Assembly (NCBI GenBank): GCA_963664305.2
Contig: CAXXLV010000002.1
Coordinates: 608,001 to 672,000 of the forward strand
Direction: 5' to 3'
Length of the DNA: 64,000 bases
Origin: an uncultured Aliarcobacter sp.
GTDB lineage: Bacteria > Campylobacterota > Campylobacteria > Campylobacterales > Arcobacteraceae
How positions within the stretch are numbered: position 1 is the stretch's first letter; each line of letters starts with the position of its first letter. The notes beneath the pieces are model-generated. The model saw nothing but the letters and a program-made list of their open reading frames with translations. It searched no databases and was not told the DNA's origin. This document shows positions 2,746 to 34,038 of this stretch, in pieces. A program made the translations under genes and the position numbers.

Positions 2746-2758
2746 GAAAGCTCCTTTT

Positions 2759-3127
2759 TTATCTACTTAATACTATATTAACTGCTTTTAATAACTGGTC
2801 TGGTACAAATGGTTTTACAATCCATCCTGTAGCTCCTGCAGCTTTACCTTTCGCCTTCATTTCATCACTTCTTTCAGTTGTAAGAACAAGAATTGGTTTT
2901 TTTGTATATTGTGGTATTTTTCTTAATTCACCAATTAATGTTAGACCATCCATATTTGGCATATTTACGTCTGTGATAATTAAATCAAAATCTGTAGCTT
3001 TTGCTTTTGCTAAACCATCAACACCATCAACGGCTTCAGTTACATCCGTATAACCACCCTCATTTAATGCATAGTTTAGCATATCTCTTAGCATTGTAGA
3101 ATCGTCTACGATTAAAAGCTTAGCCAT
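2759..3127 (-). CDS. cheY: Chemotaxis response regulator CheY
   Basis: Stand-alone receiver domain (VDDS, TDVNMPNMDG, GATGWIVKPF) upstream of cheA. Confidence 0.93.
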   Translation of the reverse strand: MAKLLIVDDSTMLRDMLNYALNEGGYTDVTEAVDGVDGLAKAKATDFDLIITDVNMPNMDGLTLIGELRKIPQYTKKPILVLTTERSDEMKAKGKAAGATGWIVKPFVPDQLLKAVNIVLSR

Positions 3128-13965: not shown

Positions 13966-14508
13966 TTAATATAATCCAAATTTACCAGCAACTGAACTTT
14001 TATATAAAACTCTCATATTATCATCTTTATCAATAAATACTTTGAATAAAGCGTCTGATGCCTTTAAATCTTCTAAAGCTTCTTCAATATCTATTGGTTT
14101 ATAAGATGTTAATCTTACAGGAGTAATTTCGTCTTCAAATTTCTCTAATTCTAATGCAATTTTATCTTGAATTTCATTAGCTTCAACTTCAGATAATTTA
14201 GTAGCTTTATGAGCTGCAATTTTATCATGATGTCTTCTTAATACTTTAGATACTCTATCAACTGCAATATCAATTGCAGCGTATAAATCTTTATCTTTTT
14301 GTTTTACAACAATAGTATCTAAATGAGCAATATTTAAAGTGAATTCAAAAGAGAAAGCTTTTTTACCATGTTTTTCATCTTGTGAAATAATTGAGTTTAC
14401 AGAAATAATATCTAAATTATATTTTTTAAACACTTCTACTGAGCTATTAATGTAATCTTTGATCGCATCTGTTAATTCTATGTGTCTTCCTACAATACTT
14501 GTATTCAT
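13966..14508 (-). CDS. hpf: Ribosome hibernation promoting factor (long HPF)
   Basis: GRHIELTDAIKDY and DLYAAID motifs, C-terminal KPIDIEEA domain. Confidence 0.93.
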   Translation of the reverse strand: MNTSIVGRHIELTDAIKDYINSSVEVFKKYNLDIISVNSIISQDEKHGKKAFSFEFTLNIAHLDTIVVKQKDKDLYAAIDIAVDRVSKVLRRHHDKIAAHKATKLSEVEANEIQDKIALELEKFEDEITPVRLTSYKPIDIEEALEDLKASDALFKVFIDKDDNMRVLYKSSVAGKFGLY

Positions 14509-14657: not shown

Positions 14658-15509
14658 CTAAGCGTAATTAAATATAGAAGAATTTGAGTTTGAAAGGTTT
14701 TTAACGTAACTATTTAGTTCACTATTATTAGTTTGATTATTCATCATTTGCATAATATTTTTAAAGTTACTTAAATCTAAATTCTCTGAAGGATTTGAAC
14801 TATTAGATTTTATAGTATCAAGTAATAATTTTACAGTATCTTTTATAGTTGAATTATCAGCTGTTTCATTAGATATTCCTAATGCAGCATTTTTTTCTTC
14901 TTGAGATACAATACCATCTTTATTAGTATCAAGTTCATCATATTCTTCTTCATCAGTTGACGCTGCTGAACCACCACTTCCTCCACCTTTAGGTGGTGGC
15001 ATTGATGCTACAGATTCAGAAGAAGAGCTATTAGTTACTTGATTATATGCACTTGTTAACTCGTCTGTTGAAATTGAACCATCACTATCAGTATCTAATG
15101 CAGAAAACTCTTCATCACTTAAGATTGAAACTTCACTTGCACTAAGTAATGAATCACCATCACTATCATAACTTGACATTATCATAGAACTAAACTCATT
15201 TGCTTGTTGACTAGTTGGTGGTTCAGGCATTTGAAGGCCTAATTCAGATATTAAACTTTCAAATTCTTCTTTTGAAGGCATTTCTCCATCAAAAGAAGAT
15301 AATTTACTATCTATTGCACTTGCAATTTCATTTTGAGTAACTAGTCCATCACCATCACTATCAAGTGTAGAAAACTGTTCTTCACTAACACCTAATTCAT
15401 CAATACTCAAAGATGAATCAGAATTAGTATCACTATTTTTAACTATGTCTTTTGAAATATTACTTATAGGAGACATCATACCTATAGAACTATACGAAGA
15501 AATTGTCAT
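14658..15509 (-). CDS. Acidic multi-EF-hand (putative Ca2+-binding) protein with no Sec signal peptide
   Basis: EF-hand loops DTNSDSSLSIDE, DSDGDGLVTQNE, DSDGDSLLSASE, DTDSDGSISTDE and DTNKDGIVSQEE; Pro/Gly linkers. Confidence 0.88.
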   Translation of the reverse strand: MTISSYSSIGMMSPISNISKDIVKNSDTNSDSSLSIDELGVSEEQFSTLDSDGDGLVTQNEIASAIDSKLSSFDGEMPSKEEFESLISELGLQMPEPPTSQQANEFSSMIMSSYDSDGDSLLSASEVSILSDEEFSALDTDSDGSISTDELTSAYNQVTNSSSSESVASMPPPKGGGSGGSAASTDEEEYDELDTNKDGIVSQEEKNAALGISNETADNSTIKDTVKLLLDTIKSNSSNPSENLDLSNFKNIMQMMNNQTNNSELNSYVKNLSNSNSSIFNYA

Positions 15510-15529
15510 ATTATCCTCCTTTTTTTAAA

Positions 15530-15560
15530 ATCCTATTCTTTTAAAGTAAATAATGGGTAA
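15530..15560 (-). promoter_or_regulatory. Promoter of the EF-hand gene with TTAC direct repeat
   Basis: Minus strand reads TTAC-CCATTAT-TTAC-N10-TAGGAT. Confidence 0.7.
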
Positions 15561-15568
15561 CAAAATTA

Positions 15569-16906
15569 TTAAGAATCACTAGAACCTTCAATAATTAATT
15601 TTAAAGATGAAAATGCTGTTTCCATTTGCGTAATCAATACCGTATATTCTGCAAATTGTGTAGACATCTGTTCATATTTTTCATCTAATTTATCAGAAGC
15701 TGTTTCATAATCTTCATTTAATGAGTCAATTTTGTCGTTTAATTTATCTTCATAAGTCGTAAAAAGTCCATCTAAGGAATCTAATGAATCTAAATAAGTT
15801 TTCAATTTTGTTCCAATACCTTCTTTTTCTGCATAACCAACAAATAATTCTTTTAAATCATCATAATTATCACTGACAGCTTCTGTTAATTCTGTAGAAT
15901 CAACATTTAAATAACCATCTGTATCAAAAGATATTCCATATTTAAACAGACTCTCTTCATTATCTAATCCATAACTTCCAAATAAAATCTCTTTTATACT
16001 ATTCATCATTGATTTTAAAGTACTTGAATCAGAAATTATTGCTGGGTCATCTTCATCACCCAAAATATAAGAATTTACTAAATCAACTAAATCATTGTAT
16101 TTATCAGCTACATCTTCAATTGTTGATACTAATGTACTAGTATCTCTTTCCATAGTAATTGAAGAATCACCAGTTGTAGTAGCAGTTATTATTAAACCAT
16201 TAGCCATTGTTACTTTATTTGATGAAACATCATAAGAAATACCATCAATTGTTGCTTGCATATTTTGTGCTGTTAAAACATGACTATCTTCTTCTTCAAA
16301 TCCTAAATCTATATCTGTTTGAGAAATAGAAATTGCATTTGATTCTCCAGTTTCAGCACTTTTTATTACAAGTCTATATGAATCATCACCAACTTGTTCT
16401 AAACTTGCTTCAAAATTTGAGTTATAACCCATTTCAGTTACCAAACTTTCATAAGTTTTTCCATCAGTTGAAAAATCATAACTTGTATCTCCAACAGTAA
16501 TAGTTATTGTTCCTGAATCCATTGTAGCTGTTGTATCTGAAATTGTATTTGATTGATATACATCTTTTTGTGCTAATTGACTAACACTAACACTAATTGT
16601 CCCCGGAGTTAATTTACTTGAATCAGTTGCATCAAAAGTTACAGAATCACCTGATGTTGTTGCACTTATTTCATCAAACACATTAGTTCCACTTGTATAT
16701 AAATCAAAATCGTCAACTAAATCAAGTAGTTCTAAAACCATAGTTTCAATTTCAGTTAATGCATCTAATTCAGCTTGTGTATCATCAATTTCATCAGTAA
16801 TTGGGTCTAGAATAGATGTACTTTCTGCTGTTTTTAATTTAGTAATTAAATCTGAACTTAAATCTACACTTCCTGAAGTTCCGAGTCCTAAAATTCCATC
16901 TGCCAT
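15569..16906 (-). CDS. fliD: Flagellar filament cap FliD-like protein
   Basis: LGLG...LITKLKTAE N-terminus, VSQLAQKDVYQS, C-terminal KYEQMSTQFAEY. Confidence 0.88.
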   Translation of the reverse strand: MADGILGLGTSGSVDLSSDLITKLKTAESTSILDPITDEIDDTQAELDALTEIETMVLELLDLVDDFDLYTSGTNVFDEISATTSGDSVTFDATDSSKLTPGTISVSVSQLAQKDVYQSNTISDTTATMDSGTITITVGDTSYDFSTDGKTYESLVTEMGYNSNFEASLEQVGDDSYRLVIKSAETGESNAISISQTDIDLGFEEEDSHVLTAQNMQATIDGISYDVSSNKVTMANGLIITATTTGDSSITMERDTSTLVSTIEDVADKYNDLVDLVNSYILGDEDDPAIISDSSTLKSMMNSIKEILFGSYGLDNEESLFKYGISFDTDGYLNVDSTELTEAVSDNYDDLKELFVGYAEKEGIGTKLKTYLDSLDSLDGLFTTYEDKLNDKIDSLNEDYETASDKLDEKYEQMSTQFAEYTVLITQMETAFSSLKLIIEGSSDS

Positions 16907-16916
16907 TTTATATCCT

Positions 16917-18515
16917 TTACATTGCTAATAGCGTTTGAAGCATTTCATCAACTGCAGTTATCACCTTTGCATTTGCTTCATATGCTGCTTGAAATTGAAG
17001 AAGATTTATCATCTCCTCATCTGAATCTACTTTTGTAAGATTGTTATATGTTGTTTCCAAAGAATTTACTATCGTATTTTGAGATTCTAATTTAAAGTTA
17101 TTATTTTCTACGTTTGAAGAAACTGTAACTAATAAGTTTTGATAAAACTCACTAAATGAAGTATTTGAAGTTGAACCAATAGTTAAATTTGTTGCCCACT
17201 GAATTTCAGATAGGTTTTCTAAGTCATTACTGGTTAAAGAGCTTACATTATCAGAAATAAAATTTAATGTATCAACATTTGAACCAGTAAATAGAGGCGT
17301 ATTACTACTTGAATTAACTAAATCAATTAATGCACTTGCAAATTCATCTAAACTATCTTTATATGAATATATATTTGAAGTTGAAGTTGTAAGCTCTTGG
17401 GTTATAGCCTTTAAAGAACCACTTGTTAGAGATAAACCATTATTATAAACAGCTAATGAAACATTATTTTCAGCTTCAACAGAAGTTGCACTTTTTGATA
17501 TTTCACTACTATTTACAGAAATAGCAATATCAAAAGCCCCCTCTTCTCCTTCAATATTTGATTTAATAATTAAATTATTACTTGAATCAAGATACGCGTT
17601 GTAATTTGAAAAATTTGAGTTTGAATTAATTGCATCAATAATTTGCTGTTTTAATTCATTTTCATCTGTTCCACTAACATTTGCACTTAATGTTAATGAT
17701 GTAGTATTATTTAAAGAAATAGTAATTTCATCTCCATCACTAAAGTTACTATCATCTAAAGAAGATGAAGTATAAATATCTTTTTGTGCAATATTTTCTT
17801 CATTTATACTTACTTCATGTAAATTTGTATCATTAAAAATTACATTTACTCCTGCAATTTTTAGGTTATAAGTATCACTATCTCTATTGATTTCTATATC
17901 AACATAATTTGATAACTCTTTTTCTAAAGCATCTCTTTTATCAAGTAAATCATTTGTTTCACCACTTTGTTGCATCTGTTTATTAAGATAGACTATCTGT
18001 TCTAAAATATCATTTACACTATCAACTTGATCTTGTAATTGTGTATTTAAACTCTCTAAGGTATCATCTAAATCACTGTTTAATGATTGTAAATTATTTA
18101 CTAATAATTGAGATTGAGTTGATAATTCATTTTGATAAATTAAGTTTGTAGGTTCTTCTCTTAATGATTCAATTGAATTAAAAAAGTTACTTAACGTTGT
18201 TGAAAAACCACTACTATCAGCTTCATCAAACATTATTTCAATACTACTTAATATAGTGTCTTCTTGTTCATAATATGAAGCTAAACTACTTTGCGCAACC
18301 AATTTATCATATAAATAACTATTTGTTGTTCTAGTAACTCCATCAAATGATACTCCATTCCCAATATTATCTTCTAAGCTATTTAATTCAGAAGTATTAA
18401 CAACTCTTTTTACATAACCATCTGTATTTTCATTTGCAATATTATTAGAAGTTACATCAACAGAATATTTTGAGGCATCAAGACCACTTTTTGCGATGTA
18501 TAAAGAATTTATCAT
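16917..18515 (-). CDS. flgK: Hook-filament junction FlgK-like protein
   Basis: SNNIANENTDGY, NDLLDKRD and VDSDEEMINLLQFQAAYEANAKVI motifs. Confidence 0.92.
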   Translation of the reverse strand: MINSLYIAKSGLDASKYSVDVTSNNIANENTDGYVKRVVNTSELNSLEDNIGNGVSFDGVTRTTNSYLYDKLVAQSSLASYYEQEDTILSSIEIMFDEADSSGFSTTLSNFFNSIESLREEPTNLIYQNELSTQSQLLVNNLQSLNSDLDDTLESLNTQLQDQVDSVNDILEQIVYLNKQMQQSGETNDLLDKRDALEKELSNYVDIEINRDSDTYNLKIAGVNVIFNDTNLHEVSINEENIAQKDIYTSSSLDDSNFSDGDEITISLNNTTSLTLSANVSGTDENELKQQIIDAINSNSNFSNYNAYLDSSNNLIIKSNIEGEEGAFDIAISVNSSEISKSATSVEAENNVSLAVYNNGLSLTSGSLKAITQELTTSTSNIYSYKDSLDEFASALIDLVNSSSNTPLFTGSNVDTLNFISDNVSSLTSNDLENLSEIQWATNLTIGSTSNTSFSEFYQNLLVTVSSNVENNNFKLESQNTIVNSLETTYNNLTKVDSDEEMINLLQFQAAYEANAKVITAVDEMLQTLLAM

Positions 18516-18524
18516 AATAAACTC

Positions 18525-18905
18525 CTAATAGATTCTTTTTACATCAACAAAATCAATAAAAGTTACAGTATCATCTAAAATATATTTTTTTTCTAAAGCA
18601 TCTATTCCTAGAACTTCATGACAAACTAAATATATTTTATTATCTTTTGTTGTTTGAATTGAACTAACATTAAATTGTCTAAAACCTCTTTCACCATTTC
18701 TTAATCTACCATCTTCAACAACTCTGTCAATAATATTTACAATATTTGTCATAGTTAATAAATTCATTGATTTTTGTAATTGAATTACCATTGATTCTAA
18801 ATTATCAAAATTTGTATTTTGATAATTATTCATAAAATAGCTATAACACTCAATTACTTGTGATTCTAGTCCTTTTATATCCATAATATTATTTTTCATT
18901 TTCAA
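18525..18905 (-). CDS. Hypothetical protein within the flagellar-homolog operon
   Basis: 126-aa ORF tightly packed between flgL and flgK, AAGGA SD. Confidence 0.75.
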   Translation of the reverse strand: MKMKNNIMDIKGLESQVIECYSYFMNNYQNTNFDNLESMVIQLQKSMNLLTMTNIVNIIDRVVEDGRLRNGERGFRQFNVSSIQTTKDNKIYLVCHEVLGIDALEKKYILDDTVTFIDFVDVKRIY

Positions 18906-18912
18906 TCCTTTT

Positions 18913-20046
18913 TTAACTTAAATATTTAACTAATGACAAGTTATTTACTTTGTTGATAGTTGAGTATAAAGCTGTATATGTATTTTCTAAAGCTTGAGAT
19001 TCAACAGCAAGTGCAGTTAAATCTGCTGCACCAACTGTTTCTTGTAAAATGCTAAAGTTTGTTAATTTTGTTTGAACAATTGATTCATAGTTTTCAATTG
19101 AAGCAGTTCTTATTCCAAGTTTTGCATGAGCTAAATTTACACTATCGTAAATATCTCCAATTTTATCAACGTAACTTGATAAAATAGAATCTGCTTCATC
19201 TTCAGTTATTGAATTACCATTAGAATCTTGTTGTTTTAACGCATTTATAACTTCATCTAAATCATCAAAAACTGAGTGTTTTGATGTTAAAGAAGTTGTT
19301 CCAGTGTTAGTAGTTGTAAAAGTTCCATCTCCATTATCTGTAATTGATAGAGCTGTTTGTGAACTATCCCCATTTAAATATAATCCATTATAAACACCAT
19401 CATTATCAGTATCTAATAATTTATATTGATTACCATCTTTATCTAGAATAATTTCATTTTCTTCAAATGTTAAATTTTCACCAGTTTGTGCTGTTTGATT
19501 TGTATAATATAGAAGCTCAATACCATTTAATCCTTGATTATTATAAGTATTTGTTTCAACATTAATTGTTTTATTGTCATTTGTTGATACATAAGAAATT
19601 CTTCCAGTTGTTTCATCTTTTACAAAAGGTTGTGTTGTTACACTATTTCCAGAAAAAAGGTATTGATTACTTGCACTACTATTTGCAAGCGAGTATATAT
19701 AATCTTTAATAGATTCTAATTCATTTGCAATAGTTTCTTTATTATCACTATCAGTTGTATCTGTAGATGCTTTTAAAATCAAAGATTGAGCTGATTCAAG
19801 AGATGTTTTTATACTTGAAACGGCTGTATCACTTGTCGTATTAAATGAATTAGATGATTGAATTCTATCTAAGATTGAACTATAAGAATTAACACTATTA
19901 TTTATTGATAATAATTGATTATACTTTGAAGAATCATCGCTACCATATTGTAAAGCTTCATTACTACTTAATCCATAAGTTACTTTTTCATTTCTACTAT
20001 TTAATAGACTTAAATTGTACATAATAGTATTTATTGAACTAACCAT
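18913..20046 (-). CDS. flgL: Hook-filament junction FlgL-like protein
   Basis: LANS...YLFSG motif; flagellin-C-like end ADLT...NNLSLVKYL. Confidence 0.85.
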   Translation of the reverse strand: MVSSINTIMYNLSLLNSRNEKVTYGLSSNEALQYGSDDSSKYNQLLSINNSVNSYSSILDRIQSSNSFNTTSDTAVSSIKTSLESAQSLILKASTDTTDSDNKETIANELESIKDYIYSLANSSASNQYLFSGNSVTTQPFVKDETTGRISYVSTNDNKTINVETNTYNNQGLNGIELLYYTNQTAQTGENLTFEENEIILDKDGNQYKLLDTDNDGVYNGLYLNGDSSQTALSITDNGDGTFTTTNTGTTSLTSKHSVFDDLDEVINALKQQDSNGNSITEDEADSILSSYVDKIGDIYDSVNLAHAKLGIRTASIENYESIVQTKLTNFSILQETVGAADLTALAVESQALENTYTALYSTINKVNNLSLVKYLS

Positions 20047-20059
20047 AATAAACTCCTAA

Positions 20060-22030
20060 TTATCTTTTTAGACCTATTAATGTTGTTAGAATTTCATCTG
20101 CTGTGGTAATAGATTTTGCATTTGCTTCAAAAGCTCTTTGAAATACCATCAAATTAACTAAACTCTCACTCAAATCTGCTGTACTTAATTCTAAAGTTTC
20201 ACTTTCAACTGATACACCATTATTATTATTTACTGCATAGATTGGATTTCCACTCTCTTTAGTTGCAGCTAATAGATTATTTCCTATTGACTCTAATCCT
20301 ATATTGTTTGTAAATTGAGCAATTGCAACTTGTCCGATAACAAAATCAACTCCGTCTTGAGTCATAGTTATTATTCCACTATCATCAACTGAAAATTCTC
20401 CAAAAGATGAATCAGTTAATCCTAAAGAGCTTAGATTTAATTGTAAAGAAGACAAAGAAGTTGTTTGATTTACAGTTGAAATAATTTGCATAAATTCTGC
20501 ATTAGCACCACTATTTCCACTTGCATCTTGATTTCTTTCTTTTGTATAAACAGTTCCACCATCATCAAACTCAATTACACCCGAGAATTCTTCTCCAGGA
20601 TTTTTTGCTTCAATAACTAACATTCCATTTATTGTTTTTGCTTCAACTTGAGTTTGTAAATCTGCATCTGTATTTATTTTTGAAATCAAATCTTGAATAG
20701 CACTATTGTAATCTGTAAGAGTGTTATCACTTGTTACTGTAACACCATTTAAAGTAAAAGATATTGTATCTCCAACATCGAAACTTAAAATATTTCCATT
20801 ATCATCGCTAATAATATCTGCAGCTTCATATACATCTTGTTGAGTACCAGCTACTGCATCTCTTAGTGCTTCCATTGCACTTTTAACTGCTGCTTCACCA
20901 GTTCCTTCAACAGCATTTGTTAGAGTTGTTTTTGTTCCAACTTGTTCTGTTGTTCCTGAAACTTCAGCTAAATCACCAAGTGTAAATGATGTTCCTGGAA
21001 TTATTGAATCTATTTTTATTGCACCATTTAAAACATCAACATTTGAGGTACTTGCACTATTTGTTGAATCAACTGTATAAGCTTTTAATCCAGTAATTTT
21101 TGAAATTTCATCAGCTAAAGATTTATATGTTGCTACCCTACTTGCAAGTACATTATATTCTTCATCAGTTGTTACACCAGATGTTGTAATCCCTGCTGCA
21201 TCCATTTCTGCTTTAAATGAATCTGTTGCCGTAGTAGTTACATAATTTTGTGTAATTTTATTTCCATCAACATATACGTAAATTTGATCACTTTCACTAT
21301 CTAATAAACTTGTTCCTGTATTTGGATAATCTATTAGTGTTGTTTGAGCTATTGATGTACTACTTGACTCTTCTGGATTTTCAGCATAACTTTCTAAAGC
21401 TTTATTATAATTAGTAATTAATGCTTCAATATCAGAGATTTTTGCAGATTGTGTCTTTATTCCTGAACCTGAAAGTTCAGTTGAGTCACTTTTAGCACTG
21501 GTAGTATAATCAGACATTTTTGCAGCATAAGTTTGGATTTTATTTGAAAATTGAATTACTTGATTTCCTGCAATTTCACTAAAAGCATCAGTAAAATATG
21601 TTAGATTTGAATTTGTAGAAGTAATATCAGATGATGGATCAATTGTACTAATTGCCCATCCTTGAACTTCATTTCCAGAAGCATCTTGTAAAGTTCCATT
21701 TTCTCCCATTCTAAAATTTCCAGCTCTTGTATAGTAATTTTCAGATGTTCCACTAAAGTTTTTATTTGATACAACAAAAAAACCATCTCCATCAAGTGCT
21801 AAATCATAAGATGAACCCGTTAAATTTAAACTTCCTTGTGTATATTGTTTTTCTGCATTTGTAACAGATGAACCTTTTCCTATACTGTCTTGATACATCA
21901 AATCAGCAAAAGAAACTCTTGATGCTTTATATCCAACAGTATTTACGTTTGCAATATTATTTGACTCATTATCTAAAGCTGTTTGCTGAGAAGAAAGTCC
22001 TGCAATTCCAGTCCATAATGCACTAATCAT
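20060..22030 (-). CDS. flgE: Flagellar hook FlgE-like protein
   Basis: NNIANVNTVGYK, DLALDGDGFF, YYTRAGNF and LELSTADLS...QRAFEANAKSITTAD motifs. Confidence 0.92.
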   Translation of the reverse strand: MISALWTGIAGLSSQQTALDNESNNIANVNTVGYKASRVSFADLMYQDSIGKGSSVTNAEKQYTQGSLNLTGSSYDLALDGDGFFVVSNKNFSGTSENYYTRAGNFRMGENGTLQDASGNEVQGWAISTIDPSSDITSTNSNLTYFTDAFSEIAGNQVIQFSNKIQTYAAKMSDYTTSAKSDSTELSGSGIKTQSAKISDIEALITNYNKALESYAENPEESSSTSIAQTTLIDYPNTGTSLLDSESDQIYVYVDGNKITQNYVTTTATDSFKAEMDAAGITTSGVTTDEEYNVLASRVATYKSLADEISKITGLKAYTVDSTNSASTSNVDVLNGAIKIDSIIPGTSFTLGDLAEVSGTTEQVGTKTTLTNAVEGTGEAAVKSAMEALRDAVAGTQQDVYEAADIISDDNGNILSFDVGDTISFTLNGVTVTSDNTLTDYNSAIQDLISKINTDADLQTQVEAKTINGMLVIEAKNPGEEFSGVIEFDDGGTVYTKERNQDASGNSGANAEFMQIISTVNQTTSLSSLQLNLSSLGLTDSSFGEFSVDDSGIITMTQDGVDFVIGQVAIAQFTNNIGLESIGNNLLAATKESGNPIYAVNNNNGVSVESETLELSTADLSESLVNLMVFQRAFEANAKSITTADEILTTLIGLKR

Positions 22031-22069
22031 TTTTAATCCTTTATAATTAATAGTGATTCCACTTATTTA

Positions 22070-22100
22070 ATCATAAAGGTTTAGGGTAAATTTAGGGTAT
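22070..22100 (-). promoter_or_regulatory. Promoter of the flgE-flgL-orf-flgK-fliD operon with direct repeat
   Basis: Minus strand reads ATAC-CCTAAAT-TTAC-N10-TATGAT (plus strand TTAGGGTA twice, 11-bp period). Confidence 0.72.
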
Positions 22101-22145
22101 CTAGAAAATAAATAGTTTTAATAATTTACTAACCGTTGGTAACAG

Positions 22146-22898
22146 TTAGTAAATTTTGGTAATATTATTGTAAGAAATAGTTTTTGCTTCAGTATCATAA
22201 GCTGTTGCCGTATCTTCTGTATATGCAAGTGCTAAGTTACTTTGTGAAATAGATGAAGAACCATTACTAACAGAAACAACTAATTGATAATTTCCACTTG
22301 TATTTTGAACTACACTTGCAGTCATTCCTGATGTTTGCGAAATTTCTGTTGCTAATTCATCATAAGTTTTATTATAAGTTGAATATGTATAGCTATTTCC
22401 ATCACTATTTGTTAACGTAATTGAGCTATCTTCATTTGTTGAATCAACAACATCTGAACCACTCGATACTTCATCAAAATAATATACATCATAATAACCA
22501 GATAATTCATAAGCAGTTAAAGTAATTTCTCCATCATTCATGGATACTGAGGAAATTCTATATTGTTTATTATTACCTTCATCATCTGTATCCCCATTTT
22601 CTACGATATTTCCAATTAATGATGCAGAACTAGAAAGTGCTGATTGTTCAAAAGTTGATTGTAAAGCTTCCATTGCTTCTACTGTAGCTGTACTTGCTTC
22701 TAAATTTGATAATTGAAGTTGAGTATCAAGCATTGTTGAAGAATCAACTGCACTTGTTGGATCTTGAAGTTTTAATTGTGTTAGCATCAATGTAATAAAA
22801 TCAGAACTTTCTAATTGATCATTACTAACTGCTGAAGTGACTGTATTACCATAAGCATCTAATGATGAGCTTGTTGTTATCGAACTTGTAGTTGACAT
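22146..22898 (-). CDS. flgD: Hook capping protein FlgD-like
   Basis: DFITLMLTQLKLQDP and QLQLSNLE motifs. Confidence 0.9.
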   Translation of the reverse strand: MSTTSSITTSSSLDAYGNTVTSAVSNDQLESSDFITLMLTQLKLQDPTSAVDSSTMLDTQLQLSNLEASTATVEAMEALQSTFEQSALSSSASLIGNIVENGDTDDEGNNKQYRISSVSMNDGEITLTAYELSGYYDVYYFDEVSSGSDVVDSTNEDSSITLTNSDGNSYTYSTYNKTYDELATEISQTSGMTASVVQNTSGNYQLVVSVSNGSSSISQSNLALAYTEDTATAYDTEAKTISYNNITKIY

Positions 22899-22928
22899 AT
22901 TATACTCCTTAATGGTATAGAATAAAAA

Positions 22929-22980
22929 ATTCTAACTATATGGAGTAAATATAGGGTATTAAAGAGTAAATAAAAGGTAA
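22929..22980 (-). promoter_or_regulatory. Promoter of flgD with four phased TAC half-sites
   Basis: Minus strand reads TTACCTTTTATTTACTCTTTAATACCCTATATTTAC-N10-TAGAAT; spacings 11/10/11 bp. Confidence 0.72.
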
Positions 22981-24303
22981 CTAGTTATTAATATTGATAT
23001 AAAAATGATGATAACCATCAATATATTTATATTCAAGTTTATAATTATGAATTTTGATAATATTATTTGAAATATAAAGCCCAAGCCCTAAACCACTTGT
23101 TGCAGTTTCATAGTCATGATTAAATGGTTTATAATATTCTTCAATATCTTTTGTTAGTTTTTCTCCTTTGTTAATTATTTCTATTGAATTTTCTTCAATG
23201 ATGATTTTAGGTTCTTCTTCTAAACTATATCTTATTGCATTATCAATTAAATTTTTTATAGCAATAGAAAATAGTTCAAAATCTGCATTAATTTTTAAAT
23301 CAGCTTTATCTTCTATTTCAATAGAATGTTCATCTAATAACAAAATATCAAAAGATTGATCAACTAATTCAATGATATGATATTCATTTTTATTTAGAGT
23401 AATTTTGCCAGAAGTTAATTCTTCTATTTTTGCAAACTCACTTAATAAATATTCTAGTCTTTGAAAGACCCTAATTAATATATATTTTCTTTCACTATCT
23501 TCATAAAAATCTGTAATTAATTTACCTTTTGTAATAGGTGTTTTTAATTCATGCATTATGTTTCTTAAAAAAAGATTTCTTGAATCTCTCAACTCTTTTA
23601 GCTGTTTTAATGCATTTGAAAATTCTCTTGTAAGTTCAGAAATTTCATCTTTCCCATTTATTTTTGTAGTGATTTTGAAGCTTCCTTTTGATAGATTAAT
23701 CATATCTTCTTTTAAACTAAGAAGAGGTCTTAATTTTTTTCTAATAAATAGGAAAAACCAAATTAATGAAATATTAACTACACTTAAAACAACTAACCAA
23801 AAATACTTAAACTCATTCTCTTTTAATTCATCAATTAATAATATTTCATGTGGCTTAGGTCTTAATTTAAAAAAAATAGGTTCTTCAAATCTTTCAAATA
23901 GTGGTTTTTCTGGTGGAGGAGGCATTTTTCTAAAATCAGGAAATTTAGGATTAAAATGTATATATTTAACACCATTTAACATATACGTATCAATTGGAGC
24001 TTCATCATCTATTTTTATTTTTTTATAATTTGATGTTAATAAATCTTCAAAACTTTTCTCAGATAATCTCATATCAAATACTGAGATTTTATCATTTATC
24101 TCTTGTAATGATGCATTCTTCATATTTAAATCTTCTACAATTCTAACTGTTGACATATATCTTTTTACTTCTAATAAAGAGTAAGTTTTACTATCTACAA
24201 TAAATTGTATAGTTATAATAATATTAATAATTAAGAAAATAGAAAAGAAAAAAAGTTTAATTTGAAAAAATATAGAATCTTTTTTATTGATTAACCAATT
24301 TAT
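22981..24303 (-). CDS. Membrane sensor histidine kinase (ArsS/RacS-like: HAMP, HisKA, HATPase); start probably non-canonical
   Basis: MHELKTP, NLIDNA and GLGLGLYI motifs. The frame stays open upstream of ATG 24156 through the first TM helix (KKDSIFFQIKLFFFSIFLIINIII); ATA at 24303 follows AGAGGAG. Confidence 0.88.
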   Translation of the reverse strand: MNWLINKKDSIFFQIKLFFFSIFLIINIIITIQFIVDSKTYSLLEVKRYMSTVRIVEDLNMKNASLQEINDKISVFDMRLSEKSFEDLLTSNYKKIKIDDEAPIDTYMLNGVKYIHFNPKFPDFRKMPPPPEKPLFERFEEPIFFKLRPKPHEILLIDELKENEFKYFWLVVLSVVNISLIWFFLFIRKKLRPLLSLKEDMINLSKGSFKITTKINGKDEISELTREFSNALKQLKELRDSRNLFLRNIMHELKTPITKGKLITDFYEDSERKYILIRVFQRLEYLLSEFAKIEELTSGKITLNKNEYHIIELVDQSFDILLLDEHSIEIEDKADLKINADFELFSIAIKNLIDNAIRYSLEEEPKIIIEENSIEIINKGEKLTKDIEEYYKPFNHDYETATSGLGLGLYISNNIIKIHNYKLEYKYIDGYHHFYININN

Positions 24304-24970
24304 AACCTACTCCTCTAATTGATAATATATATTTTGGTTTTTTTGTGTCTTCTTCTATTTTTGCTCTAACTCGACCAATTAAAACATCAATACTTTTATA
24401 TGAGCTTTCATATTTTATAGAATCAACATTAGAAAGTAATTCTTCTCTTGAAACAACAAAACCACCTTTTTGAATCATATATTGAAGTATAAAATACTCA
24501 GCATTTGTTAAATCAAGAAGTTCTTCATCTTTATATATTTCCATTTTAGATTCATCAAAAGTAAATATTTGTTTTTTATTTAAAGGAGATTCTTTTTCAA
24601 TAATTTGATGATTACATCTTTTTAAAATAGATTTTATTCTAAGTATTAATTCTTGTGTATCATATGGTTTTGGCATAAAATCATCAGCTCCATAAGAAAA
24701 ACAAGCAATTTTATCACCTAAATATGACCTTGCAGAAGAAATTATAATTGGTAAATCAAATTTTTGTCTAATTATTCTACAAACTTCTATGCCATCAATA
24801 TTTGGCAATGATAAATCTAATATTACTAAATCATATTTTTTTAAAGAAAGTGCAGATATTCCAAGCTCTGGAGTATCATAATTTGTAACAATTATGTTAT
24901 ATTGGCTTAGATATTCAGTTAAAATTCTAGCTAGTTCTGTATCATCTTCAATCATTAAAATATTAATCAA
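24284..24970 (-). CDS. OmpR-family response regulator
   Basis: Receiver domain (IEDD, LDLSLP, KPY) and winged-helix domain (SIDVLIGRVRAKI, IRGVGY). Confidence 0.95.
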   Translation of the reverse strand: MINILMIEDDTELARILTEYLSQYNIIVTNYDTPELGISALSLKKYDLVILDLSLPNIDGIEVCRIIRQKFDLPIIISSARSYLGDKIACFSYGADDFMPKPYDTQELILRIKSILKRCNHQIIEKESPLNKKQIFTFDESKMEIYKDEELLDLTNAEYFILQYMIQKGGFVVSREELLSNVDSIKYESSYKSIDVLIGRVRAKIEEDTKKPKYILSIRGVGYKLVNQ

Positions 24971-24996
24971 ATTTTTACTCCTTATTTACTTTTTGA

Positions 24997-25027
24997 ATTA
25001 TAGTATATCAATGTAAATAAAAAGTAA
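24997..25027 (-). promoter_or_regulatory. Promoter of the two-component operon with direct repeat (possible autoregulation)
   Basis: Minus strand reads TTAC-TTTTTAT-TTAC-N10-TATAAT. Confidence 0.72.
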
Positions 25028-25034
25028 CAATTTG

Positions 25035-27269
25035 TTAAATCAAGATTTCTCGATTTCCTTTGGCATTTACTTCTGATAAAATTCCAGTTTGTTCTAACTG
25101 TTCAACAATTGTTGCTGCTCTATTGTATCCAATTCTAAGTCTTCTTTGAATATATGAGATTGAAGTTTTTTTCTCTGTTAAAACAATCTCTTTTGCATCT
25201 TCATATAATTCATCAAGTTCAGCTAAATCTGAATTATTTGAATTTCCACCACTAGATGAAGAAACTCCTGAGTTTCTATCTTTTATAAAGTTCATATCAT
25301 AAGAAACTTCTCTTTGGTCTTTTAAAAACTCTACAACTTTTTCAATTTCAGATTCTGTCGACCAAGGCGCATGAATTCTCACTAGTCCAGACATTCCAGG
25401 AGGTGTAAATAACATATCTCCCCTTCCTAAAAGAGATTCAGCACCCATTGAATCTAAGATGATTTTAGAATCTATTTTTTGCCCTACTTTGTATGATAAT
25501 CTACTTGGTAAATTTGCTTTAATAAGTCCTGTAACAACATCAACGGATGGTCTTTGAGTTGCAACTATTAAGTGAATTCCAGAGGCTCTTGCCATTTGTG
25601 CAAGCCTTGCAATTGAATATTCAACATCTTTTCCACTTGTCATCATTAAATCTGCTAACTCATCAATTACAACAACTATATAAGGCATTGTTTCATAACC
25701 TTCATTTTTAGCTTTTTCATTGTAATTCTCAATGTTTTTTGTTTTTGTTTTTGACATTAATGTATAACGTCTTTCCATCTCACTAACCATATTTGCTAGT
25801 GCATTTATTGCATCACTTGCTTTTGTAATAACTGGAGTTAAAAGATGTGGAATATCGTTATACATTGAAAACTCAAGCATTTTTGGATCAATCATCACTA
25901 ATCTTAAATTATCTGGTGAATTTTTATAAAGTAAAGATAAAATCATTGAATTTATTCCAACTGATTTTCCTGAACCCGTTGTTCCAGCAATTAAAAGATG
26001 TGGAAGTTTTTTTAAATCTGTGATAAATGGTTTACCAACAATATCTTTTCCTAAAATCATTGTAAGTGGTGAAATAGAATTTTGGAAAATTTCACTTTCT
26101 AACATCTCTTTTAGATATATTGTTTGTGTATCTTCATTTGGAACTTCAATTCCCACAACATCTTTTCCAGGAATTGGAGCTTGAATTCTTATTGTTTGAG
26201 CTTTTAAAGCCATTGCTAAATCATCTTGAAGACTCAAAATTTTTGAAACTTTTACATTTGGTGCTGGTTTAAACTCAAAAGTTGTTACAACTGGACCTGT
26301 ATAAGTTCTTACAACATCACCTTCAATTTTAAACATTGCAAGCTTATCTAATAAATCTCCAATTTTTTGGTCAATAAAAGATTCTGAAACTTTTGATTTA
26401 TTATCTTTTGGAGGATTTTGAAAAAATGATGTTGGAGGTAATTCAAAATTTTTTGGTTTTTCTGTTTTACCTACTTCAATTTCTGCTAAAAGCTTTTTAT
26501 TTTCTTCCAACTCATCTACAATAATCCCATGAGATTCTACAACTTGAATATCTTTTTCAAAATCATCACTATCAAATAAAGAAGATTCATAAATATTTGT
26601 ATCTTTTATTTCTTCTATATTCTCATATATTTCTGGAGTTATAGTTGCAATATTTGTAGTAGTTTCCTGTTTTATCTCTTTAACTTCAGGAATAGTTTTA
26701 GTAAGTTTTTTATCTATACTCTTTAAAACCTCTTTAGTTGTCTCTTCAACTCTTTTTTCTCTTCGTTTATTTTCAATTCTTTTAATATCTAAACTATTTT
26801 TTAATTTAATTTTATTCTTTAATTTTTTTAAATCTTCAATATCAAAATCTGAATTTTCAAATAAAACTAAAAATGAGATAATAAATCCAACTAAAACAAA
26901 GAAATAAAGTCCAGCACGTCCAATCACTGGGCTTAAAGAATCAACTAAAATATTTCCAATTTCTCCTCTTGAATAAGGATTTTCAATAACTAAAGCTTGG
27001 AAAATCAAACAAACAAAAAGTAATAAAAATACAACTAATATATTTAGTATTAAATCTTTTTGGTCAATATTTTTTTTGAAATTAATCATATAAAGTGGAA
27101 AAATCAATAGTAATAAATATATATAAGATAAATATCCAAAATATTTATGAGAAAAATCAGAAAATAAATATCCAACATTTCCCACAATATCTTTTCCACT
27201 TTCAAATGTAGAAAATTGAAAATAAACAATAATAAATAAAATAATTAGGGATATAATTTTCTTAGCTAT
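25035..27269 (-). CDS. ftsK: DNA translocase FtsK (start probably ATA/ATC at 27269/27272)
   Basis: PHLLIAGTTGSGKS, DELADLMM, ATQRPS motifs and gamma domain IGYNRAA; first TM helix lies upstream of GTG 27185. Confidence 0.95.
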   Translation of the reverse strand: MAKKIISLIILFIIVYFQFSTFESGKDIVGNVGYLFSDFSHKYFGYLSYIYLLLLIFPLYMINFKKNIDQKDLILNILVVFLLLFVCLIFQALVIENPYSRGEIGNILVDSLSPVIGRAGLYFFVLVGFIISFLVLFENSDFDIEDLKKLKNKIKLKNSLDIKRIENKRREKRVEETTKEVLKSIDKKLTKTIPEVKEIKQETTTNIATITPEIYENIEEIKDTNIYESSLFDSDDFEKDIQVVESHGIIVDELEENKKLLAEIEVGKTEKPKNFELPPTSFFQNPPKDNKSKVSESFIDQKIGDLLDKLAMFKIEGDVVRTYTGPVVTTFEFKPAPNVKVSKILSLQDDLAMALKAQTIRIQAPIPGKDVVGIEVPNEDTQTIYLKEMLESEIFQNSISPLTMILGKDIVGKPFITDLKKLPHLLIAGTTGSGKSVGINSMILSLLYKNSPDNLRLVMIDPKMLEFSMYNDIPHLLTPVITKASDAINALANMVSEMERRYTLMSKTKTKNIENYNEKAKNEGYETMPYIVVVIDELADLMMTSGKDVEYSIARLAQMARASGIHLIVATQRPSVDVVTGLIKANLPSRLSYKVGQKIDSKIILDSMGAESLLGRGDMLFTPPGMSGLVRIHAPWSTESEIEKVVEFLKDQREVSYDMNFIKDRNSGVSSSSGGNSNNSDLAELDELYEDAKEIVLTEKKTSISYIQRRLRIGYNRAATIVEQLEQTGILSEVNAKGNREILI

Positions 27270-30641: not shown

Positions 30642-31445
30642 ATGGATGTAAATGCAATAAATAATAATTCTATATCAAGTTTAAACACTTCATCATCTTC
30701 TTCTTTACAACTAGAAAAAACCTCTCAAAGTGGTAGGATTAATAATTCTGAAAAAGATGCATTAAGTTTAAGTATCAGTGATTATAATAAACAAAGAGAT
30801 GAACTTTCTTTAAATATTCAATCATTTAATGATGGAATTGCAATATCAAAAATAGCTCAAAATGGAATATCAAAACAACAAGAATATTTAAGTAATGTTC
30901 AAGATAAACTTCAAAATATTAATAATTTACAAAATAAAAATGATATAAAACAAAGTATCAATGAAGATTTAAGAAATTTTAATCAAACTGCATATGAAAC
31001 AAAATATAAAAATGATAATTTATTAGTTCAAAATTATTATGATGACAAATCAACTATTGATATAAATACAAGTACTGGAAATTTTTCTGTTGAAAAAACA
31101 AATACTGCAACTTTCGCAAATGATATTTTTGAAACAGTAAATAATAGTGATTTAAATAATCCAGAAAACGTTTCAAATGCTTTAAATAAAGTTTCAACAG
31201 CATCATCTCAATTAAACGGATTATCTGAACAATTTTCACAATTTAGTAAACAATTAGAAGAAAAAGCATTAGAAAATATAAAAGAGCAAAATAATTTATA
31301 TAAAGAAAATCAAATGAATAAACCAAAAGATTTTGGTAGAGAATCAACTGATTTTTCAAAAGCAAATATTAATGCAAATGCAGGATATTTAGCAGCTTCT
31401 CAAGCAAATATCGTTCAAGCACAAAGTGTAAAAGTTATAGGTTAA
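30642..31445 (+). CDS. Short divergent flagellin-like protein (FlaC-like)
   Basis: Flagellin-N-like RIN...D...LSI...NDGI and C-like DFGRES..FSKANI...ASQAN. Confidence 0.75.
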   Translation: MDVNAINNNSISSLNTSSSSSLQLEKTSQSGRINNSEKDALSLSISDYNKQRDELSLNIQSFNDGIAISKIAQNGISKQQEYLSNVQDKLQNINNLQNKNDIKQSINEDLRNFNQTAYETKYKNDNLLVQNYYDDKSTIDINTSTGNFSVEKTNTATFANDIFETVNNSDLNNPENVSNALNKVSTASSQLNGLSEQFSQFSKQLEEKALENIKEQNNLYKENQMNKPKDFGRESTDFSKANINANAGYLAASQANIVQAQSVKVIG

Positions 31446-32371: not shown

Positions 32372-32929
32372 TTATAAATGAGGAATTCTAACTTTTGAAT
32401 TTAATAGATAACCAATAATTATCATCATAAAAAGTACAAAAGTTTCTGAAATAAATCCTGTTAAGAAAATCAAATAAACAAGCCATAATAAAATAGCACC
32501 AAGAGGAGTTGGTACACCTGTAAAATATTTTTCTACTTTACCTTCATCTGCATTGATATTAAATTGAATTAATCTTCTTAATCCTGAAATTACATAATAT
32601 ACAAATGCAAAAATAATTAAAGGAACACTTAAAAAAGGTTCTTTTGTATCAATTACTGCAAAATAAATAAACATTGTAGGCACAATTACAAATGATAAAA
32701 AATCTGCAAATGAATCTAATTGAATACCAAATTGAGTAGATAGATTATATTTTCTTGCAATTTTTCCATCAAATATATCAAATCCTCCAGCAAGCCAAGC
32801 AAAAAGGGCTGCTGCAAAAAACTGATGATGCGTTAAAAAATATATTGCAAATAAACCTGATGCAATATTAAAAAAAGTAACAATATTTGCTAAATTAAAA
32901 TGATTGTACTTATTAAACAAAAAACTCAT
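32372..32929 (-). CDS. CDP-alcohol phosphatidyltransferase (PssA-like)
   Basis: DIFDGKIAR...G..LDSFADF motif. Confidence 0.9.
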   Translation of the reverse strand: MSFLFNKYNHFNLANIVTFFNIASGLFAIYFLTHHQFFAAALFAWLAGGFDIFDGKIARKYNLSTQFGIQLDSFADFLSFVIVPTMFIYFAVIDTKEPFLSVPLIIFAFVYYVISGLRRLIQFNINADEGKVEKYFTGVPTPLGAILLWLVYLIFLTGFISETFVLFMMIIIGYLLNSKVRIPHL

Positions 32930-34038
32930 TCATTTCCTTTGTTATATATATGATATTGATTTCTTCCATTTTCTTTTGACTTATATAAACATTCGTCTGC
33001 GAATTTATATAATTTGTTTGCTGAAATGTATGAATTTGGTTCATATATTATAGCTCCCATTGAAATTGAAACAACGTCGAGTATTTTACTATTTTTATGC
33101 TCAATTTGTAATTCGACAATTCGTCTATTCATATCTTTTAGACAATTTTCTAAAGTATTTATATCTGTATCAAATAAAATTACACCAAATTCTTCACCAC
33201 CTAATCTAAAAACAAATTCATATTTTTTATTAAAATACTCTTTTAAACTAGTTGCTACTTTTTTAAGTGTAACATCACCCAAATCATGTCCATAAGTATC
33301 GTTGTACTGTTTAAAATAATCTATATCGACCATAATAAAAGCACACTTCCAATTATTTGCATTTGAAATGAATGGCATATTATCAAAAATTGTATCAAAA
33401 TATTTTCTATTATAAAGTTTTGTCATAGAATCAGTAATAGAATCAATTTTATATTTTTTATTTAAAACTGTTAATTGTCTATCTTTTTTTATAACTTGAT
33501 AAATAATATAAACAATAATTACAAAAGATAATAGAAGAATTAAAACAATATTATAAAAAAGATAGTTTTTCATCTGTTCATAATCATCTAAGAAAGCTTT
33601 TCTTTGTTTAAAAGCTTGTTGAGTTTCATATTTTATTAAAAAATCAATTCTTTTTAAAATATTTATAAAAAGATTGTATTTGTTTTCTTTAAATGATTGA
33701 AGGATTTCATTGTTGATTGTATCAACAACAATTTTTTCTTCTTCATTTTTATAAGCTTTAAAATAGTAATCCCACTCTTGAAGTATAATCTCTTGTTCTT
33801 TCTTAAATTCACAGTTGTATTTTATTTTTCTACAAGCAGCAATTTCTTGAAAATTGTCAGAAATAATTTGAAGTTTAATAATAGGAATTAAATTTCCAAA
33901 ATATATATTGTCTATTTGTTTTTTTAATTGATCAATTTGACTATAAAATATTAGTGCAGAAACTATTAATGTAGCCAATACGGTGCAAACAAGCATCAAT
34001 AATTTTAAAGTAGTTGATTTTAAAAAATTATATATCAT
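32926..34038 (-). CDS. Membrane diguanylate cyclase with four-helix-bundle-type sensor
   Basis: Two TM helices; DIDYFKQYND and RLGGEEF motifs. Confidence 0.92.
   Translation of the reverse strand: MIYNFLKSTTLKLLMLVCTVLATLIVSALIFYSQIDQLKKQIDNIYFGNLIPIIKLQIISDNFQEIAACRKIKYNCEFKKEQEIILQEWDYYFKAYKNEEEKIVVDTINNEILQSFKENKYNLFINILKRIDFLIKYETQQAFKQRKAFLDDYEQMKNYLFYNIVLILLLSFVIIVYIIYQVIKKDRQLTVLNKKYKIDSITDSMTKLYNRKYFDTIFDNMPFISNANNWKCAFIMVDIDYFKQYNDTYGHDLGDVTLKKVATSLKEYFNKKYEFVFRLGGEEFGVILFDTDINTLENCLKDMNRRIVELQIEHKNSKILDVVSISMGAIIYEPNSYISANKLYKFADECLYKSKENGRNQYHIYNKGNE

Follow-up and report, generated by a model that had tools for sequence, protein, structure and literature searches.

A compact flagellar gene module lies between ftsK and hpf in the genome of an uncultured Aliarcobacter sp. 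(GCA_963664305.2; two contigs, 2.78 Mb). The window, meaning the whole 64-kb stretch of DNA that was analysed, belongs to contig 2; positions without a prefix refer to the window, and C1 and C2 denote the two contigs of this genome, G000. The module comprises nine open reading frames (ORFs) in the order response regulator, histidine kinase, flgD, flgE, flgL, orf126, flgK, fliD and a gene for an EF-hand protein, all on the minus strand. An earlier interpretation made from the letters alone, here called the sequence-only reading, had placed these nine frames; their positions match, and the Pfam profiles agree except for orf126, which falls in no family. As that reading had also noted, flgL stands upstream of flgK, and a Pfam scan of the stretch finds zero families of basal-body, rod, ring, export, motor or flagellin genes inside the module. 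The evidence set out below makes it probable that the module is an alternative hook, junction and cap set, controlled by its own two-component system and assembled on the common basal body of the cell.

The five flagellar proteins all carry their family-specific Pfam domains above curated cut-offs (table 1); against the NCBIfam model TIGR02550, FlgL scores 111.9 bits, under the cut-off of 127.2. The sequence-only reading proposed that they may be a second set, and translated searches of the genome (tblastn) find paralogues of all five elsewhere, at 30–50% identity. Module FlgD is 40% identical to the primary FlgD (C1:258144–258824), FlgL 35% to the primary FlgL (C1:236756–237889), FlgK 36% to the primary FlgK (C2:1723883–1725772) and FliD 43% to the primary FliD (C2:1722518–1723864). 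Module FlgE shares 49.5% identity with the primary FlgE of 708 aa and 30% with a FlgE of 489 aa. These paralogues sit in two ordinary flagellar loci, together with FlhA, FliI, FlhB, FliR, FlgC, FliE, FlhF/G and MotAB; the same loci further hold FliN, FliH, FliG, FliF, FlgB, FlgG, FliS, FlgH, FliL, FliQ and FlgI. When 47 proteins of the primary loci were compared with the genome by tblastn, second copies were found only for FlgD, FlgE, FlgL, FlgK and FliD, apart from generic ATPase, ParA/SRP and response regulator relatives, a weak MotAB-like pair, an 86-aa ORF resembling the FlhB C-terminal part and a small unnamed orf104. FlhA, FlhB, FliR, FliQ, FliF, FliG, FliH, FliI, FliE, FlgB, FlgC, FlgG, FlgH and FlgI are single-copy. 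A complete secondary flagellar system is not present: the 47-protein search returned no second export apparatus, MS/C ring or rod genes. Since the genome has one export apparatus, one basal body and one rod, the module set must use the housekeeping basal body, as the sequence-only reading had proposed.

Table 1. Features of the module and its flanking genes (positions in the 64-kb window).
Feature	Position	Strand	Evidence or detail
ftsK, flanking gene	25035–27185		Pfam
Box TTACTTTTTATTTAC upstream of response regulator gene	25013–25027	(-)	followed by TATAAT -10
Further box match near response regulator gene	24975–24989	(+)	plus-strand match
Response regulator, OmpR/PhoB-type, 228 aa	24284–24970	(-)	Response_reg 84.3 bits; Trans_reg_C 70.2 bits
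Histidine kinase, probable full protein, 436 aa	22981–24291	(-)	start ATC 24291–24289, overlapping response regulator stop
Histidine kinase, called ORF, 391 aa	22981–24156	(-)	HAMP, HisKA, HATPase_c (Pfam)
Two tandem boxes upstream of flgD	22966–22980, 22945–22959	(-)	followed by TAGAAT -10
FlgD paralogue, hook cap/scaffold, 250 aa	22146–22898	(-)	Pfam FlgD 37.5 bits (cut-off 27)
Box ATACCCTAAATTTAC upstream of flgE	22086–22100	(-)	followed by TATGATTAAAT
FlgE paralogue, hook, 656 aa	20060–22030	(-)	Flg_bbr_C 44.7 (cut-off 23); FlgE D1 domain 39.4 (27)
FlgL paralogue, hook–filament junction, 377 aa	18913–20046	(-)	Flagellin_N 33.3 (26.6)
orf126, 126 aa	18525–18905	(-)	no family in Pfam or NCBIfam
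FlgK paralogue, hook–filament junction, 532 aa	16917–18515	(-)	FlgK_D1 96.7 (28.6); TIGR02492 258 (170.75)
FliD paralogue, filament cap, 445 aa	15569–16906	(-)	FliD_C 98.8 (25.4); FliD_N 45.8 (24.8)
Box TTACCCATTATTTAC upstream of EF-hand gene	15546–15560	(-)	followed by TAGGAT -10
Acidic four-loop EF-hand protein, 283 aa	14658–15509	(-)	Pfam EF-hand_7 63.9 (30); EF-hand_1 44.2 (25.4)
hpf, flanking gene	13966–14508		Pfam

A common promoter element links the parts of the module. Every gap preceding the response regulator gene, flgD, flgE and the EF-hand gene contains a box, the 15-nt direct repeat WTAC-N7-TTAC (typically tgTTACccwttaTTTAC), placed 9–10 nt upstream of a TATAAT-, TAGAAT- or TATGAT-like hexamer; the spacing to this -10 element is constant across loci. 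The pattern WTACNNNNNRTTTAC has six matches in the window against 0.89 expected, a number reached in none of 100 shuffles, and all six fall in the module. Genome-wide the box has 49 matches (permuted control motifs average 76), and nine lie within 150 bp upstream of a co-oriented ORF, five of these in the module. Other strict matches precede priA, adk, the gene of a dynamin-like GTPase and one further ORF; the first three look like chance and were set aside. A position weight matrix, built from 44 sites of other genomes only and applied to 2569 upstream regions of the window genome, ranks the EF-hand gene first, flgD second, the response regulator gene third and flgE fifth. Far lower stand the flagellins and the primary flgE and flgK (ranks 1833 to 2241), and the primary flgD is 246th. 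Fourth rank belongs to an unknown hydrophilic protein of 187 aa with a Ser/Thr-rich N-terminus (P0002; C2:543062–543625, minus strand; L091:4062–4625); its orthologues have the box in G148, G139 and the module-less G108 and lack it in G130 and G121, a pattern that does not track the module. In a comparison of orthologous loci, 15 of 17 have the strict box upstream of the response regulator gene, 12 of 17 upstream of flgD, 10 of 17 upstream of flgE and 13 of 13 upstream of the EF-hand gene. Upstream of flgK (0/18), fliD (0/18) and hpf (0/12) it was not found, and it precedes the kinase gene once in 17 and flgL twice in 18 loci. The box also precedes the response regulator gene in seven of eight further two-component loci, and it stands before the EF-hand gene where flagellar genes are missing. 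Different genera share the box, which within the genome is almost confined to the module; the sequence-only reading had seen a regulated module here, and the common box supports it. At promoters activated by regulators of the OmpR/PhoB type, two half-sites one helical turn apart occupy the place of the -35 element. We infer that the adjacent regulator binds the box.

This regulator consists of a receiver and a winged-helix domain; a sigma-54 activation domain was not found with Pfam. The kinase belongs to the ArsS family (NCBIfam NF038389, 340.8 bits against an equivalog cut-off of 250); ArsS of Helicobacter is an acid sensor. The kinase ORF as called lacks the first transmembrane helix (TM1), and its frame is open upstream to the ATC codon. 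Orthologues in other genera have ATG at that position and encode TM1; the genomes of genus g1 have an Ile codon there (ATC in the window), a position 8 nt short of the regulator gene's end. This suggests that the start is non-canonical and translationally coupled. The protein is probably a classical periplasm-sensing kinase of 436 aa. In it TM1 would be followed by some 90 aa of periplasmic domain, which bear an acidic patch and a PPPP motif, and then by TM2, HAMP, HisKA and HATPase. The periplasmic domain is poorly conserved: identity over the whole kinase is 46–59% in most orthologues, against 73–86% for the regulator. One module genome (G085, locus L010) has a kinase of only 269 aa, which lacks the periplasmic domain, so that one of its two membrane helices runs straight into the other; its module is otherwise intact, and the EF-hand gene is absent there.

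The distribution of the module was surveyed with its FliD in 150 sampled genomes of the family, representing 22 genera; with the window genome included, 134 of 151 have a FliD. Module-type FliD occurs in 16 of the 150, at 57–95% identity, in five genera (g1, g4, g7, g10 and g20). As far as the contigs reach, all 16 loci read lpxD-ftsK-regulator-kinase-flgD-flgE-flgL-(orf126)-flgK-fliD-(EF-hand gene), mostly followed by hpf and der. Two g2 genomes carry a rearranged version, flgE-flgL-flgD-flgK-orf126-fliD, with a divergent regulator–kinase pair and a short EF-hand gene. Regulator orthologues of at least 73% identity are found in all 16 module genomes and in three others. The sequence-only reading expected the two-component system and the EF-hand gene to travel with the flagellar genes. 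For the former this holds in all 15 orthologous loci that reach that far, the 16th module genome having its regulator orthologue on another contig; for the EF-hand gene it holds in part, the gene being present in 11 of the 16 module loci and missing from five.

A FliD tree places the origin of the set inside the family. It contains 68 sequences (17 from the module site, two from the rearranged loci, 43 others of the family and six outgroup sequences), was inferred under LG+G4 with a quick search, and leaves out the long FliD types of 520–700 aa found in some genera. The module-site FliDs form one clade with a support of 100 in the Shimodaira–Hasegawa-like approximate likelihood-ratio test (SH-aLRT), whose nearest sister is one g10 protein, the rearranged g2 pair branching next (95 each). 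A separate clade of 30 sequences (99) holds the primary FliD of the window genome and the second FliDs of eight module genomes. The two clades are separate and well supported, and the duplication is therefore an old one that took place within the family. An origin by transfer from elsewhere was rejected for the sample: a search of 115 genomes from 11 further families of the class gave FliD identities of 31% at most. Between the window genome and G148, both of which have two sets, the ratio of nonsynonymous to synonymous substitution rates is 0.00–0.21 for every module gene, and ftsK, hpf and der give 0.03–0.06; the module genes are thus under purifying selection.

Several relatives have the module type as their only distal set. 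Further FliD matches occur in 12 of the 16 module genomes, and the second FliD was retrieved for eight. In G083, G099, G056 and G120 (each one contig, 99% complete), FliD, FlgK and FlhA are each encoded once, the first two in the module; the module FlgE is also the only one in G083, G099 and G056, and G120 has an extra FlgE of 989 aa. The FlgL proteins of G083, G099 and G056 (loci L015, L019 and L020) are about 454 aa long, against 377 aa in the window, and align in two pieces, which indicates an insertion in mid-protein. The converse states are also seen: G129 has the regulator, the kinase and a 113-aa FlgD fragment at the site and a primary-type FlgK elsewhere, and in G020 and G031 ftsK directly adjoins hpf, with nothing between.

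Published tabulations contain matching sets. Extra FlgD, FlgE, FlgK, FlgL and FliD copies of 250, 656, 532, 377 and 445 aa, with contiguous tags, are listed for A. ellisii, and extra copies of the same five proteins also for Arcobacter sp. L (Mo et al. 2022, S8 Table, PMC9321776). As given in that table, the lengths in these two organisms, 250/656/532/377/445(446) aa, equal those of the module. For A. anaerophilus the entries in the same table show only a contiguous flgD-E-L-K-fliD block, of 252, 676, 375, 535 and 447 aa, and a FlgE of 989 aa; the organism is recorded as flagellated and motile (S2 Table, PMC9321776). The main text describes two main flagellar loci and does not mention the extra copies (PMC9321776). 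The extra copies were, in other words, already tabulated in the 2022 supplement; no description of the two-component system, the box, the EF-hand gene, orf126 or the pattern of replacement was found there. No description of the module was found in the full-text literature searched, whose coverage leaves subscription journals outside. Together, the sole set in the four relatives and the motile, flagellated A. anaerophilus argue that the module type would build an ordinary working flagellum, and suggest, indirectly only, that it would suffice for one. The sequence-only reading went further and considered an alternative, possibly cation-binding appendage. A special or non-flagellar appendage is not supported, given that the module is the only FliD/FlgK set beside one FlhA in four complete relatives; the second set, the shared basal body and the link to the two-component system are.

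The products of the module differ from their paralogues in composition, in the direction that the sequence-only reading had pointed out for the axial proteins, acidic and poor in Arg. Lys and Arg together (K+R) make up 2.4–5.6% of the module proteins and 6.6–10.5% of the paralogues. The module proteins have about half the Lys+Arg of their paralogues, more Ser+Thr and roughly double the net negative charge: -28 in the module against -13 in the primary protein for FlgD, -53 against -29 for FlgE, -28 against -18 for FlgL, -59 against -36 for FlgK and -69 against -21 for FliD. The EF-hand protein has a net charge of -38. The shift extends over the whole clade, the mean net charge per 100 aa being -15.3 for module FliDs (n = 17) and -7.3 for others (n = 43), and -9.8 for module FlgKs (n = 14) and -6.4 for others (n = 42). 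Among 2110 ORFs of at least 150 aa, with a median K+R of 12.4%, FlgD ranks second from the lowest (2.4%), FlgK eighth, the EF-hand protein tenth, FliD 21st and FlgE 25th. The same low-Lys/Arg, acidic, Ser/Thr-rich make-up is seen in giant ORFs of about 2000–3800 aa (C2:1–11406, C1:988723–995376, C2:1044477–1051154 and C2:866822–872767), presumably large surface or secreted proteins. The remaining low-K+R ORFs resemble membrane proteins.

The EF-hand protein has four loops of the DxDxDG type, contains neither Arg nor Cys and lacks a hydrophobic segment at its N-terminus. Conservation is seen in the first 90 and the last 45 residues, the part between them being variable. In an AlphaFold2 model the EF-hand pairs reach a predicted local distance difference test score (pLDDT) of 70–87, and the termini and the linker are disordered. 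No paralogue was found in the genome by tblastn. Membership of the XopAW family of calcium-binding type III secretion effectors (NF041410) was rejected, the score being 77.1 bits against a cut-off of 120 and the likeness resting on the EF-hand repeats. The genomic context of the gene is broader than the flagellar set. In G142 and G113, of the window's own genus, the site reads lpxD-ftsK-regulator-kinase-EF-hand gene, without flagellar genes, and the same three genes are adjacent, again without flagellar genes, in G075 and G011. In G119 and G032 (L086 and L087), of another genus, the space from the kinase gene to the EF-hand gene is taken up by an AcrB-like resistance-nodulation-division pump, an outer-membrane efflux protein and two small unknown ORFs. 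The two-component system and the EF-hand gene are thus the older unit, and the flagellar cassette fills a slot in this pre-existing sensor/EF-hand unit. An efflux pump in the same slot hints that the two-component system may respond to something that an efflux pump also handles. Since the pair exists without flagellar genes, the EF-hand protein is not simply the cargo of the flagellar set that the sequence-only reading had suggested; its make-up and the shared promoter box nevertheless render its export plausible.

No flagellin accompanies the module. The genome has three flagellins and one flagellin-like ORF, none inside the module and none preceded by a box. Two tandem flagellins (C1:561829–564023) are basic, with an isoelectric point (pI) of 9.4 and net charges of +6 and +7; the third (C2:406470–407297) is acidic (pI 4.5) and 45% identical to the tandem pair. 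The idea of a module-specific flagellin was rejected: the acidic third flagellin is equally common in genomes without the module, and no flagellin has the box. The flagellin-like ORF of 267 aa lies 5.6 kb upstream of the module on the opposite strand (window 30642–31445, plus strand). It shows weak Flagellin_N (25 bits) and Flagellin_C (19 bits) matches and 27% identity to true flagellins, has no box (matrix rank 162 of 2569) and may be a short secreted flagellin relative.

The ninth gene, orf126, encodes a protein of ordinary composition (K+R 11.9%, two Cys) with no predicted transmembrane segment, which is probably cytoplasmic. Its AlphaFold2 model, at a pLDDT of 81, is a two-helix hairpin with a small four-stranded beta barrel. 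A paralogue was not found in the genome by tblastn, hhalign gave it no more than 1.2% probability against any of 19 small ORFs from the primary flagellar loci, and a Foldseek search of the PDB with the model gave nothing at E ≤ 0.001. With VIA-align the best Z of 7.3 is to generic helical hairpins and a BAH-like barrel, with no decisive neighbour, and the best Atlas score, 0.84, is inside the chance range. As regards an export chaperone such as FlgN, FliS or FliT, there is no family match, and the modelled hairpin and barrel have no decisive structural neighbour. A predicted complex with the C-terminal parts of module FlgK and FlgL has a median of 0.30, the mark being 0.32, and speaks neither for nor against a contact. 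A scan of species genomes with one peptide pattern, not exhaustive, matched at 13 loci, and the titles of 11 are of Arcobacter type or epsilonproteobacterial. The gene is present in 12 of the 16 same-site loci and in both rearranged g2 loci. All module-site genomes that keep a second FliD have it. The four module-only g20 genomes lack it, perhaps through a single loss; in the g2 genome G023 only one FliD is seen, and orf126 is present. Elsewhere in the window lie genes for CheA (Hpt/HATPase/CheW) and an adjacent CheY-like receiver (655–3127, minus strand) and for a GGDEF diguanylate cyclase with a 4HB_MCP sensor (32926–34038, minus strand).

Under the favoured explanation, the alternative distal set would be deployed as follows. 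(i) A periplasmic signal would activate the kinase. (ii) The phosphorylated regulator would bind the direct repeat, with its 11-bp spacing, which would replace the -35 element. (iii) Four promoters would be targeted: that of the regulator itself, that of flgD, that of flgE-flgL-orf126-flgK-fliD and that of the EF-hand gene. (iv) The products would leave through the only flagellar type III apparatus of the cell and assemble on the same rod. (v) In new flagella the housekeeping hook, junction and cap would then give way to versions that are more acidic, poor in Lys/Arg and rich in Ser/Thr, so that the two sets would be used alternately. The signal could be a divalent cation such as Ca2+, or salinity. 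This is a weak and rather doubtful guess, made because the EF-hand gene is a target, the periplasmic domain of the kinase has a conserved acidic patch, and the exported proteins are acidic and poor in Lys and Arg. The fullest version, in which a cation or salinity signal swaps hook cap, hook, junction and filament cap and the flagellar apparatus also exports the acidic EF-hand protein, is unlikely as a whole.

Some observations weigh against an alternative, regulated set. Single copy holds for the readable sequence only, 8000 bases of the genome being masked. The strict box is missing upstream of flgE in seven of 17 loci and of flgD in five. The charge ranges of module and other proteins overlap across the clade, and related genomes are not independent samples. 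The stretch was found only in wastewater runs, at a small share. In two metatranscriptomic runs, contigs match parts of fliD, flgE, the regulator gene and the EF-hand/fliD junction at 90–99% likeness; these RNA-library contigs are a weak hint of module expression, too little to prove transcription or to rank the genes, with possible DNA carry-over or relatives as their source and nearly none over flgK-orf126-flgL or the kinase gene. Finally, there is no module-specific flagellin, and therefore the bulk of the extracellular structure would stay unchanged. Genus g20, moreover, shows all states, primary-only (e.g. G020 and G115), both sets (G126, G147, G040 and G144), module-only and decayed (G129). 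This last point, with the empty ftsK–hpf junctions of G020 and G031, is what speaks for the main rival, neutral redundancy, in which an old intra-family duplicate, interchangeable with the primary set, has been lost reciprocally and has no condition-specific role. We judge it unlikely, though it deserves to be kept in view. The two FliD lineages are old, forming separate clades with SH-aLRT support of 95–100; both are still under purifying selection in two-set genomes; and neither the conserved promoters of the module nor its systematic shift in composition is expected of a drifting duplicate.

The neighbours might instead be accidental, the two-component system controlling only itself and the EF-hand gene and the flagellar cassette having landed in the gap with unrelated promoters. 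The loci of G142, G113, G075 and G011, with boxes upstream of the regulator and EF-hand genes, fit this picture, as does the efflux pump that occupies the same slot in G119 and G032. Yet the same box, at the same spacing to the -10 element, precedes flgD and flgE as well, the rearranged g2 loci included, and their scores are among the five highest of the window genome, which leaves a chance association improbable. Least probable, to the point of being nearly dismissible, is the idea that, instead of an ordinary flagellum, the set forms a separate appendage that may bind cations, or that its main task is the secretion of the EF-hand protein. That protein does resemble the exported proteins of the module in its low-Lys/Arg, acidic, Ser/Thr-rich make-up, its lack of a hydrophobic N-terminal segment would suit such a route, and its gene carries the same box; but four complete genomes with a single FlhA, and also the motile A. 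anaerophilus, have no hook, junction and cap set besides the module type, and the EF-hand gene is missing from five of 16 module loci and occurs in loci that have no flagellar genes. An alternative hook, junction and cap set under its own two-component system, sharing the common basal body, thus stays the probable reading.

Such a set has partial parallels in known systems. Dual flagellar systems include the polar and lateral sets of Vibrio parahaemolyticus, Aeromonas and Shewanella putrefaciens and the fla1/fla2 sets of Cereibacter sphaeroides. The likeness lies in two structural sets per genome, the second under its own regulator and thought to serve another condition; in the dual systems, however, the second set is complete with export gate, basal body, motor and flagellin, whereas here it consists of five distal genes only. 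In class II promoters of the PhoB/pho-box type, tandem direct repeats one helical turn apart stand about 10 nt before the -10, where the -35 element would be; a regulator of the OmpR/PhoB family binds them, and the regulator gene is autoregulated. The promoter architecture of the module is alike, but the sequence of the box and the regulon differ, and binding here is predicted. Pseudomonas aeruginosa has a Ca2+-responsive two-component system, CarSR, with the EF-hand protein EfhP. The module likewise ties a sensor/regulator pair to an EF-hand protein. Paralogous hook proteins, FlgE and FlgE2, occur in Campylobacter and Helicobacter. Every Arcobacter primary locus listed has two FlgE genes (S8 Table, PMC9321776). 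In each of these cases, as here, a genome has more than one FlgE-family gene, but those are single extras within the ordinary regulon, whereas the module brings five genes together under a regulator of their own. In Campylobacter and Helicobacter, rod and hook genes are controlled by FlgR, a sigma-54 activator of the NtrC type, and its cytoplasmic partner FlgS. Arcobacter is described as lacking RpoN, FlgRS and FliA (Mo et al. 2022, PMC9321776). The module resembles that pair as a two-component system over hook-level flagellar genes in the same phylum, and differs in its OmpR-type regulator, its sigma-70-like -10 elements and its kinase with a periplasmic domain.

The Arcobacteraceae have lost RpoN, FlgRS, FliA and FlgM, and the authors who showed this call the regulation of the flagellar genes open (Mo et al. 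2022, PMC9321776). For this question the module supplies a concrete candidate regulator, a cis-element and four candidate promoters; in module-only species every hook, junction and cap gene would be under their control. Two features point to an ionic condition, namely the association with an EF-hand protein and the loss of Lys and Arg seen consistently in the exported proteins. The module is also a natural experiment in modularity, in which five interacting distal proteins have been duplicated, kept, lost and replaced as a block while the basal body is conserved and the flagellins are held in common; it bears on how tightly the rod–hook, junction–filament and cap–filament interfaces co-evolve. 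If the fullest version of the explanation is true, the outer flagellum would be a plug-in cassette matched to the environment, and in module-only species the two-component system would be the hook-level checkpoint regulator that the Arcobacteraceae otherwise seem to lack.

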